Positions 9,001-12,000 of a stretch of DNA of 35,879 bases are shown here, piece by piece (positions within the stretch are counted from its first letter, which is position 1; every line of letters begins with the position of its first letter). A program made the position numbers. The stretch comes from a virus (taxonomy: Duplodnaviria > Heunggongvirae > Uroviricota > Caudoviricetes): IMG/VR virus record IMGVR_UViG_2548877009_000012, one strand, 5' to 3'.

Positions 9001-12000
9001 CAGTCACTAAGTGCCAAAATACTTGTTTTTTCTGGAATTGATGCAGAATTAAGCCATTTCCAGATCCCCGGTTCAGAGATATCAATGCCTCGCAGTTTCA
9101 TTGCATTCTGAATCCGCTTAGCCTGACCGCGTCCGCCCACACCTGCATCTAATAATGCCTGTAGTAGTCTCTTTGAGAACGCTTCTTTTAGTTCATCTTT
9201 TTTAACCATACGTTAATTATCAAACATAGTTGACATAACTGTCAGCTAATAGTTAACATTAACTCGAAGTTAACTAAATTAATGGATAGCAGTATGAATC
9301 CGATACAATTCGCAGTAAAAGCTGTTGGTGGTCAAACAGTCGCTGCCCGTTTATGCGGGTTGTCAAATGTTGCAATTCATAAGTGGGTTAAAAACGGAGC
9401 GTTACCTCGCACCGAATACACGATGAAAACCAACTATTCGGAAATTCTCGCCAATGCATCTGATGGCAAATTTACCGCCGAATGGTTACGCAATGTAGCG
9501 AATCCTGATCGTCAACGATAAGCTCAATTAACACTGCTCTTTTCACAATGGACATTCGTCCTACGTCGCTGAAAAGCGAGCCCCAAGATATCTGACCAAC
9601 TAAGGCCATATGCGTTTCCACGCATACCTTTCAACTAACTATTCACTATTTGGAATCATAAGAAATGTCACAAACAAGTTACAGCAAACTGTCGCAGCGC
9701 GATATCGATCGCGCTGAAACGGATTTACTTATCAACCTGTCAGCTCTGACGCAAAGGGGACTGGCGAAGATGATTGGCTGCCATGAATCGAAGGTTAGTC
9801 GTACCGACTGGCGATACATTGCGGCGATTTTATGTGCGTTCCAGATGGCATCTGATATCAGTCCGATCAGCCGGGCGTTCAACCATGCCATTAACGTTCA
9901 TGCAAATAAAAAACGTCCGGTTGGGGCCGGACGTTCTGAGCAAATCCTGATGAATATTTGATATTCAGGCAGGGCATGGAGCAATACACGGGAATAATTC
10001 TGCCACATCTGGAAGAATTTCGCCAGCAACAACACCAACCGCAGCAGCCTGAAGCCGATTGGGTTAACCCGGAGATACTGGGACCGTCTGTGAAGATGTG
10101 CAGTCACACCAATGTGCAGTCACACCAACCGCAGCAGCCTGAAGCCGATTGGGTTAACCCGGGAGATACCGGGACCGTCTGCGGTATGGAGTAAATCTTG
10201 TATGCGAGGGGACTATGCGTAATTACGCAACAATTTCACCTCAGTTCTGGTTAGGCGATACAGGGCGAAAACTAAGGAAGTCTGGTCCGGAATGTATGGT
10301 AGTGGCGTTGTATATGATGACCTCGCCTCATTCCAATATGCTGGGCCTTTATTACCTGCCTGTTTTGTACATTGCTCACGAAACCGGACTTGATCCTGAA
10401 GGGGCTTCTAAGGGGCTTCAAATGGCTTGCGAGGCTGGTTTTTGCAGCTATGACCATGATTCTGAGGTTGTATGGGTGCATGAAATGGCAGCATGGCAGG
10501 TTGGTGAAGCGCTGAAACCAGGCGATAACCGTTGTGCCGGGGTAAGAAATGAATATTCCGCGTTGCTGGAAAATCCTTTTTTATCATCATTTTATGATAG
10601 ATATAAGGATGATTTCCACCTGGATGTCAGACGTGAATCATGTCGGAAAATTGAAGCCCCTTCAGAGCCCCTTTCAAGCCAAGAACAGGAACAGGAACAG
10701 GAACAGGAAAGAGATAAAACCCTTCTGGTCCATGGCGAAAAAATCGCCACGGACCCACTGGTGGATTCTTGTCCCGTTCTGACTGAACGTCCAGGACCAG
10801 CTGGCATGACACCGGAAGCAGATTCCGGGCGTTGTGTGCAGCAGGTGCTGCTCGTCGAACCGGAGCAACAACACCAACCGCAGCAGCCTGAAGCCGATTC
10901 CGCGATGAGCGGGAAGCCGATTGGGTTAACCCGGGCGATGCCGGGACCGTCTGCGGGACGAGTTGATTATCCTGACGTGTTCGAACGGGTCTGGCGTGAA
11001 TATCCGCATCGGGCAGGGTCAAACCCGAAGAAATCCGCGTTCAATGCCTGGAGGGCCAGATTACGCGAAGGGGTGTCACCGGATGTCGTGCTGGATGGCG
11101 TGAGGCGTTACGCAAGATACCTGGAGGCTACCGGGAAAGCGGGAACTGAATTTGTTCAGCAGGCATCGACGTTTTTTGGCCCGAACAGGAATTTCGAAAA
11201 TCCGTGGTCGCTGCCGAAGGCTGGCGCAGTCAGCCTGCGTTGCGTGAATCACATTTCTGAACCGGACACCGAAATTCCGCCGGGTTTCAGGGGGTAATCA
11301 GCCATGAAAAACATTTCGACAGGAGGGATTCTTGAACGGGTGCGCCGTCTGGTTCCACCGCACGTTACAGCACCGTTCCGGACGACCGACGAGTGGCTGG
11401 AATGGCAACTGGCTGAGGGCCGGAAGCGCAGCGAGGAAGTTAACCGCCAGAATCACCAGACGCGGGTTGAAAAAATCCTGAATCGTTCGGGCATCCAGCC
11501 GCTTCACAGGAAGTGCTCATTCGGGAACTACCGGGTGCAGAACGACGGTCAGCGCCATGCTCTGAGTCAGGCAAAATCCATCGCGGCAGAGCTGCATACC
11601 GGCTGCACGAATTTCGTGTTCAGCGGTAAACCTGGCACCGGGAAAAATCACCTTGCAGCAGCGATTGGTAATCGGCTGATGGCGAAGGGGAGAAGCGTGA
11701 TTATCGTCACCGTGTCCGATGTCATGAGTGTGTTGCATGACGGCTACGACAACGGCAAGTCTGGTGAGAAATTTTTACAGGAGCTTTGTGGAGTTGACCT
11801 TCTGGTCCTGGATGAAATTGGCATGCAGCGGGATACGCGCAACGAGCAGGTCATACTGAACCAGATCGTCGACCGCAGAACGGCATCACTGCGCAGTGTC
11901 GGGATGCTGACGAACCTGAATCACGCAGCGATGAGCACACTCCTCGGCGAGCGGGTGATGGACCGTATGACCATGAACGGTGGTCGTTGGGTGAATTTTA

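Follow-up and report, generated by a model that had tools for sequence, protein, structure and literature searches.

Why does the replication region of a tailed phage carry two near-identical 60-bp direct repeats just upstream of its initiator gene, and a third copy of the same sequence inside that gene? The question is raised by the virus record IMGVR_UViG_2548877009_000012 (Caudoviricetes), a stretch of 35,879 nucleotides that we refer to as the window, where copies A and B of the repeat lie between cII and a gene for a replication initiator or replisome organiser, and copy C lies within the gene (Table 1). An earlier note on this DNA had offered two readings of the repeats: iterons bound by the initiator, forming an origin displaced upstream of the gene, or scars of illegitimate recombination. 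Here, we found that the in-gene copy is ancestral and widespread, and that the upstream copies, which differ in number and have deletions, occur in a single clade only; this favours the second of the two proposals. In our assessment, A and B are rather likely to be partial, degenerate duplicates of the DNA that encodes a linker of the initiator, that is, a scar of recombination or duplication and not an origin. The origin of this replicon is likely to be found inside the gene, at a different repeat with an 11-bp period.

The similarity of the three copies is not due to chance. In a BLAST comparison of the 700 bp upstream of the gene with the gene itself, positions 10025-10060 were identical to 10864-10899 at 36 of 36 bases (E 3e-15), and 10141-10184 matched 10913-10956 at 42 of 44 bases (E 3e-16). 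The same type of comparison aligned A with B over 60 bases, with one gap and an identity of 96.7%. The repeats thus stand where they had been reported, with coordinates shifted by 1-3 bases, and they combine a high identity to a nearby source with discrete boundaries at 10025 and 10184, as a duplicate would. The palindrome GGGTTAACCC, described as a component of each repeat, occurs exactly three times in the window, once in each copy; these occurrences are not independent, since the palindrome is part of the repeated unit. The tandem duplication of a 16-bp unit between the upstream copies was also recovered, as two consecutive copies of ATGTGCAGTCACACCA.

The copies differ by a small number of discrete changes. 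A reads CCCGG where B and C read CCCGGG, and both upstream copies lack a 23-bp segment of C that is bracketed by the 10-bp direct repeat GAAGCCGATT. Short direct repeats that bracket a segment are a classic substrate for slippage. In total, C exceeds A by 24 bp, so that both ends of the two copies share one frame (QQHQPQQPEAD ... GPS), and B is out of frame with C in its tail only. Hence, the 23-bp indel ascribed to C is real, but the frameshift said to come with it applies to the tail of B and not to A. A further deletion becomes apparent in the comparison with a 69%-identical homologue of the gene (L005 type), which has the same N-domain and another upstream neighbour. The 16-mer, TGTGCAG...TCACACCA, corresponds to TGTGCAG-(27 bp)-TCACACCA in the L005 allele of the gene, and the 16-mer continued into the head of B, TGTGCAG-TCACACCAACC, corresponds to TGTGCAG-(27 bp)-TCACACCAACC in the L005-type gene. 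Because the 16-mer together with the head of B matches the L005-type gene around a 27-bp insert, the duplicated unit probably began further 5' and has since lost these 27 bp.

Which copy is the source? Of 5426 complete E. coli genomes, 2116 contain the in-gene element at ~80% identity, usually at a single place (the median per genome is one), and its host genes are annotated as 'hypothetical protein', 'phage replisome organizer' or 'DNA-binding protein'. The upstream copies were found only in ~81 E. coli genomes and 6 phage records, which form a cII-linked clade; the presumed source is therefore ancestral and widespread (2116 genomes) and the copy clade-restricted (81 genomes). The alignment with related prophages that had been suggested as a check returned upstream repeats limited to a single clade and variable in number. 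Moreover, the in-gene element accompanies three unrelated N-domains, i.e. that of the window, that of a Tritos/Rac type (L089, L099) and that of a P0129 type (L100), and no upstream copies were found at the genes of the latter two types. Judged from these combinations, the element belongs to the C-terminal module of the gene and not to its DNA-binding N-domain. The L005 type also contains the in-gene element and has no upstream copies, and these are equally absent from 74 other loci with a homologous N-domain.

Within the clade, the upstream copies are structurally unstable, as we observed directly among relatives of at least 95% identity. Most genomes of the clade carry two upstream copies, but four loci have one only, in which the left flank of A is fused to the body of B (L007, L013, L095, L096), one has three 90-bp copies (L097) and one has three 113-bp copies (L006). 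The latter copies contain the 23-bp segment and the locus' own in-gene allele (GATGCC, GGGAGATG). Since two other loci (L011 and L092) share this in-gene allele but have standard upstream copies, L006 represents a conversion from the gene into the array and not an obligatory co-variation of the two. In E. coli SW071619 and its sister isolates (L008, 2125-2536), an upstream copy has recombined with C inside GAAGCCGATTGGGTTAACCC, so that the N-terminal domain is missing altogether and the gene is annotated as a pseudogene. The number of ATGTGCAGTCACACCA 16-mers per junction is 0, 1, 2 or 5. Indels (23 bp, 1 bp and probably 27 bp), disruption of the frame, copy number polymorphism (1-3 copies) and exchange with the source are what a recombination scar would be expected to accumulate. 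Neither the number nor the position of the copies is conserved as iterons would be, with one, two or three copies upstream and none in the L005 type.

From these variants, we infer the following course of events, in which the direction and the mechanism of the original duplication as well as the lack of a function of A and B are part of the reading. A linker-coding fragment that started at about TGTGCAG and ended in the first codons of the C-domain would have been joined ~20 bp upstream of the ribosome-binding site of the initiator gene, by illegitimate recombination or duplication at the junction between cII and the replication module. The homology of cII with other prophages ends at ~9945-9959, i.e. 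around the cII stop codon. The fragment would then have been amplified in tandem and would have lost 27 bp; slippage between the 10-bp GAAGCCGATT repeats, which adds or removes the 23 bp, would have taken out this segment in most lineages. Relatives show continued reshaping by unequal crossing-over, with one, two or three upstream copies and between 0 and 5 of the 16-mers as a result, by conversion of the array to the in-gene sequence (L006), and by crossing-over between an upstream copy and C, which deletes the N-terminal domain (L008). If A and B are such a scar, they would not be specific binding sites of the initiator.

What, then, does the initiator bind? Its N half (residues 1-155) and its C half (~248-360) match separate PHROGs, the family phrog_1701 bears the label 'DnaD-like helicase loader', and no Pfam family matched the protein. 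An AlphaFold model, built on a 25-sequence alignment, shows two confident domains (residues ~10-144 and 250-335), and a predicted local distance difference test (pLDDT) score below 50 for residues 145-249. The protein is thus predicted to consist of an N-domain (1 to ~144), a disordered linker (145-249) and a C-domain (250-335). A fold search of the PDB with this model returned weak winged-helix-type matches (E >0.1), which suggests a winged helix-turn-helix in the N-domain. Copy C is part of the sequence for the disordered linker and directly precedes that for the C-domain; the linker segment ranges in length from ~10 to ~90 amino acids in homologues. About 17 codons of the linker are read in two different frames depending on the allele, SAMSGKPIGLTRAMPGPSAG or SAIQREADWVVPENTGQPVG (10900-10956 of the window and 2222-2285 of L005), due to a pair of -1/+1 indels, and both alleles occur with several N-domains. 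The C-terminal tail of the protein, residues 337-360 (11223-11297), bears a weak resemblance to the DnaT C-terminus of E. coli, at E 0.009 and well below the cut-off of the family (NF002770), which explains why GenBank records carry the annotation 'primosomal protein I'.

The candidate binding sites are found elsewhere in the gene, as two clusters of 11-mers on either side of its most AT-rich stretch (Table 1). On a position weight matrix (PWM) built from 374 instances of the 11-mer, the four sites in the window score 17.5-23.7 bits, and the next best site in the 35.9 kb reaches 9.0 bits. We compared 80 different homologous loci, taken from IMG/VR and from E. coli and with N-domain identities of 48-99%, and found the exact 8-mer AGGGGCTT almost solely at positions +182..199 and +425..486 of the gene, in 1-3 copies with 11-bp phasing; a subset of the loci also has it at -38..-23. 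As cluster 2 flips its orientation among the loci, it is the DNA and not the encoded peptide that is conserved. Indeed, the 11-bp period rotates the reading frame within a cluster, consistent with conservation at the level of DNA. Initiators with other N-domains have repeats of their own at the corresponding two places of the gene: the Tritos type contains GTCACG repeats with ~10-bp spacing (L089, 1337-1375 and 1597-1645), and the P0129 type AAG[G/C]CTTC repeats with 12-bp spacing (L100, 1387-1410 and 1651-1710). In both families the clusters lie at ~+130..190 and ~+390..500, followed by a short acidic repeat and then by the shared linker. This arrangement points to at least three initiator families with a single architecture, in which interchangeable cassettes, each an N-domain with its putative iterons, are linked to a common linker and C-domain. 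Phased repeats that covary with the N-domain and an AT-rich neighbour are the features of a lambda-type origin, and we consider it likely that the origin of this replicon, of the Eru4 type described below, is lambda-like and in-gene, consisting of the two 11-mer clusters that flank the AT-rich stretch; its activity is predicted from the comparative data. One IMG/VR relative (L014, 2501-2812) has a third 11-mer in cluster 1, where the extra 11 bp shift the frame and cut the initiator to 103 amino acids. Because L014 gained this extra 11-mer, the candidate iterons themselves appear to be prone to slippage.

Table 1. Features of the cII to helicase-loader region; coordinates refer to the window
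Feature	Position	Strand	Remarks
cII	9665..9961	+	left neighbour of the repeats; Pfam Phage_CII, E 1e-25
Unique 'head'	9962..10024	+	separates copy A from the cII stop; includes the hypothetical ORF's ATG (9976)
Hypothetical ORF, 72 aa	9976..10194	+	phrog_2751; reads through A and B
Copy A	10025..10093	+	upstream; compared with C, without the 23-bp segment and one G
Tandem 16-mer ATGTGCAGTCACACCA	10096..10127	+	two copies; the second runs into copy B
Copy B	10115..10184	+	upstream; without the 23-bp segment; CCCGGG form as in C
Spacer	10185..10214	+	initiator Shine-Dalgarno GAGGGGA; homology to the L005-type gene starts near here
Replication initiator/replisome-organiser gene, 360 aa	10215..11297	+	phrog_1701, E 1e-150
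11-mer cluster 1	10396..10422	+	two AAGGGGCTTC 11 bp apart (10399-10419); PWM 21.6 and 23.7 bits; candidate iterons
AT-rich stretch	10550..10649	.	highest AT content in the gene (GC 0.36), enclosed by the two 11-mer clusters; possible site of unwinding
11-mer cluster 2	10650..10676	-	two inverted copies (10653-10673) at the N-domain/linker boundary; PWM 19.0 and 17.5 bits
(GAACAG)n hexamer run	10683..10709	+	encodes (QE)n; 3-7 units among near-identical relatives
Copy C	10864..10956	+	inside the initiator gene; putative source sequence; encodes residues 217-247
23-bp segment	10900..10922	+	in C, absent from A and B; CCGCGATGAGCGG plus the second GAAGCCGATT
DnaC-like helicase loader	11304..12044	+	downstream partner gene; Pfam IstB_IS21; NCBIfam PRK12377, E 9e-149

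Several observations weigh against the reading of A and B as a mere scar. Every sampled member of the cII-linked clade keeps at least one upstream copy, and these copies hardly vary from genome to genome, compared with 3-4 alleles of the in-gene copy. Substitution diversity does not demonstrate a relaxed constraint on them: in a small and closely related sample, the head, array and spacer have 4 segregating sites in 253 bp, all of them singletons, vs 6 in 294 bp of the adjacent N-domain coding sequence. The 63-bp head could not be traced to any source outside the clade, neither in phages nor in E. coli genomes. Finally, GAAGCCGATT and the iteron core GAAGCCCCTT agree at 8 of 10 bases, and the PWM scores of the GAAGCCGATT sites in the three copies are among the top 0.1-0.25%, so a weak binding of the initiator to GAAGCCGATT is conceivable. 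The persistence of at least one copy is also explained by a neutral model, since unequal exchange within the upstream array cannot remove the last copy and exchange with C destroys the gene.

Do these observations call for a function of the repeats at the level of DNA? The copies could act as brackets that promote the exchange or loss of a specificity cassette (10185-10863), or as a cis element for transcription or translation of the initiator, both of which we regard as unlikely. Indeed, A/B and C exactly bracket the N-domain cassette (the N-domain with its 11-mers), and recombination (L008) and conversion (L006) between the copies have occurred. Moreover, the block from 9962 to ~10500 shows very low diversity between cII and the linker, which are both mosaic (nucleotide diversity 0.032 and 0.029, respectively). 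However, the only product of an exchange between A and C that we observed is a dead gene, and no locus was found in which the same repeats enclose a different N-domain cassette. With regard to a cis element, the sense RNA 9962-10230 folds with a z-score of -0.15 relative to shuffled sequences, and no promoter, terminator or CII box was found in the repeats. In a related form, the upstream copies would be kept in this one clade for a cis-acting purpose, either as low-affinity landing sites for the initiator or for a complex of loader and C-domain, or as cassette brackets. Such low-affinity sites would tune origin firing as the weak extra iterons of Shiga toxin (Stx) phages do. This form is compatible with the data, because every member keeps at least one copy, the copies are near-invariant and one lineage was converted to its own in-gene allele, and yet we give it little probability.

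Still less probable is the proposal that A, B and C are initiator-binding iterons which constitute an auxiliary or displaced origin upstream of the gene. The proposal draws on the three direct copies with a 10-bp palindrome in each, on the likeness of GAAGCCGATT to the 11-mer core at 8/10 positions, and on the precedent of weak extra iterons that matter in Stx phages (PMC7466680). It could also draw on L006, whose upstream copies match its own in-gene allele; in L011, L092, L091 and others, however, the in-gene allele differs from the upstream copies. Iterons are expected to covary with the DNA-binding domain, but the element follows the C-terminal module and occurs with three different N-domains, and the palindrome is not kept in the in-gene versions of L005 and Tritos (GGGTAGTCCC). 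The region is GC-rich, with a GC content of 0.54-0.56 across A and B and 0.61-0.65 across C, and lacks an AT-rich flank. The sites GAAGCCGATT in the three copies score -1.8 to -6.2 bits on the 11-mer matrix, compared with the 17.5-23.7 bits of the in-gene sites. Together with the absence of upstream copies from the L005 type and from all the other N-domain homologues, this argues against the displaced origin of the earlier note.

The preferred reading, in which A and B are a scar, also accounts for the small open reading frame (ORF) that runs across them. An ORF at 9958-10194 had been described as a by-product more than a gene. The ORF is present, but the TTG start at 9958 is not the one in use in annotations, as related phages place it at the ATG 9976. 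Its family comprises only 10 clusters in 5.8 billion proteins, all from E. coli, with lengths of 42, 46, 51, 58, 62, 72, 76, 88 and 102 amino acids. Beyond the first ~28 residues, the clusters continue in different frames to different stops, so that neither frame nor length is kept among near-identical relatives and no homologue is found beyond the clade. In L006 the ORF closes inside the first copy, where the Prokaryotic Genome Annotation Pipeline (PGAP) annotates no gene, and the product has no Pfam or NCBIfam family. Hence, on comparative grounds the ORF is probably an accidental reading frame, as had been supposed, although its constant N-terminal part might conceivably have a function. 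That it is instead a real small protein with 1-3 copies of the linker peptide (QPQQPEAD...), modulating replication e.g. by competing for a partner of the linker, is the least probable of the alternatives: it is annotated in all related phages, all 10 clusters agree in its first ~28 residues, the frame is preserved by the 90-bp period and by three extra 16-mers (48 bp) in P0002, and a weak AGG lies 6 nt before the ATG, but its C-terminal halves run in at least three frames among near-identical prophages (P0004, P0008, P0009, P0010), apart from the truncation in L006 and the lack of relatives.

A few other candidates were tried and rejected. An RNA or single-stranded DNA structure, such as a primosome-assembly-site-like element or a regulatory hairpin, is not indicated, as the repeats fold no better than shuffled sequences (z -1.0 to +0.2), and the same holds for each copy as single-stranded DNA on either strand. 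CII boxes (TTGC-N6-TTGC) do not occur in 9900-11000, and no Rfam family matched the repeats. The head might be the N-terminus of an older replication gene, but no longer protein contains it and it has no match outside the clade; it is confined to the same 81 genomes and 6 phage records as the upstream copies.

How does this locus compare with known systems? In lambda, as well as in 933W and P27, the origin lies within gene O, where iterons and an AT-rich tract occupy the central part of the initiator gene (PMC7466680; PMC6022878). The present system resembles lambda in its two-domain initiator, in the position of the predicted origin at the N-domain/linker boundary of the initiator's own gene, in the short phased repeats that covary with the N-terminal DNA-binding domain next to an AT-rich stretch, and in the location of the initiator gene downstream of cII and upstream of a helicase-loader gene. 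Unlike in lambda, the initiator has no detectable sequence relation to O, its partner is DnaC-like and not P, and the 11-mers form two clusters ~250 bp apart, one of them in N-domain coding sequence, instead of a single array of four to six 19-mers. The 60-bp repeats have no counterpart in lambda. The predicted origin and the shared cassette architecture are thus extensions of the lambda paradigm and not new in kind.

Phage SPP1 offers a precedent for in-initiator origin repeats that are duplicated outside the gene, as its initiator G38P binds repeats that lie in the gene encoding it and also a further copy at another place of the genome (oriL/oriR). SPP1, however, duplicates binding boxes next to an AT-rich region, and the unit duplicated here does not covary with the DNA-binding domain. 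A likeness is also found in the homologies at module boundaries and the partial gene duplications of mosaic lambdoid genomes, which were first framed as 'linkers' by Susskind and Botstein and later in models of illegitimate recombination. As in those cases, a gene fragment sits at a module junction in one clade, where it is a substrate for homologous exchange, deletion and conversion. It differs from them in that what has been duplicated is an internal linker of the gene that follows it, and in that the duplicate is amplified in tandem and creates a spurious annotated ORF. The present instance is undescribed, though it is a familiar product of mosaic phage evolution and ordinary in kind. The replication genes of Rac/Tritos-type prophages share the linker and the C-domain, including a homologue of copy C at 77-82% identity; they lie downstream of ydaS/ydaT-like genes, are annotated as 'phage replisome organizer' or 'hypothetical protein', and differ from the window in their N-domain with its GTCACG repeats and in having no upstream copies.

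The window is an Eru4-type Stx prophage. Across 9665-11300 it is ~99% identical to two Shigella phages, POCJ13 and 75/02 Stx, with 99% identity to the latter over cII, ORF, initiator and loader, and 98-99% identical to phiSTEC1589-Stx1c and PhiR5_2. The phage 75/02 Stx is the type phage of Eru4, which was defined by proteins only (Fagerlund et al. 2022, PMC8951638). In that paper, the first replication protein is of 'unknown function', the loader is a 'putative helicase', and no repeats or origin are described. Among the Stx1 phages of Europe, Eru4 is a common type of replication region (PMC8951638). A search of the literature returned nothing relevant on the 11-mer, or on origins or repeats of Eru4 or POCJ13. 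The 11-bp-phased AAGGGGCTTC repeats in the initiator gene now provide a concrete predicted origin for Eru4, which we consider more useful than the repeat finding itself. The scar reading would in turn account for a spurious 'hypothetical protein' among the annotated genes of POCJ13, 75/02 Stx and dozens of genomes of E. coli that make Shiga toxin (STEC) and of O104:H4, and it documents a recombination-prone duplication that is able to inactivate a prophage replication gene.

Around these genes, the order is CI-like repressor, Cro-like regulator, cII, the 72-amino-acid ORF, the 360-amino-acid initiator, the DnaC-like loader and a DUF1627 protein. A strong intrinsic terminator lies on the minus strand at 9910-9937, in the 3'-terminal part of cII; another hairpin precedes it (fold z -3.4), and the element extends to ~9985. 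This element looks like an antisense RNA of the lambda oop type, although no consensus promoter for it was found in the head (9962-10024), where the promoter would lie. A sub-threshold match to the Rfam family AgvB (21.8 bits) falls at 9908-9966, outside the repeats. Elsewhere in the window, Rfam matches above the gathering score are located at 14969-15154, 16053-16142 and 21326-21539 (isrK, C4 antisense RNA, sRNA-Xcc1 and STnc100). Two further tandem repeats are present, one of 30 bp x ~2 at 15399-15475 and one of 162 bp x 2.3 at 35501-35879, the latter running past the end of the window.

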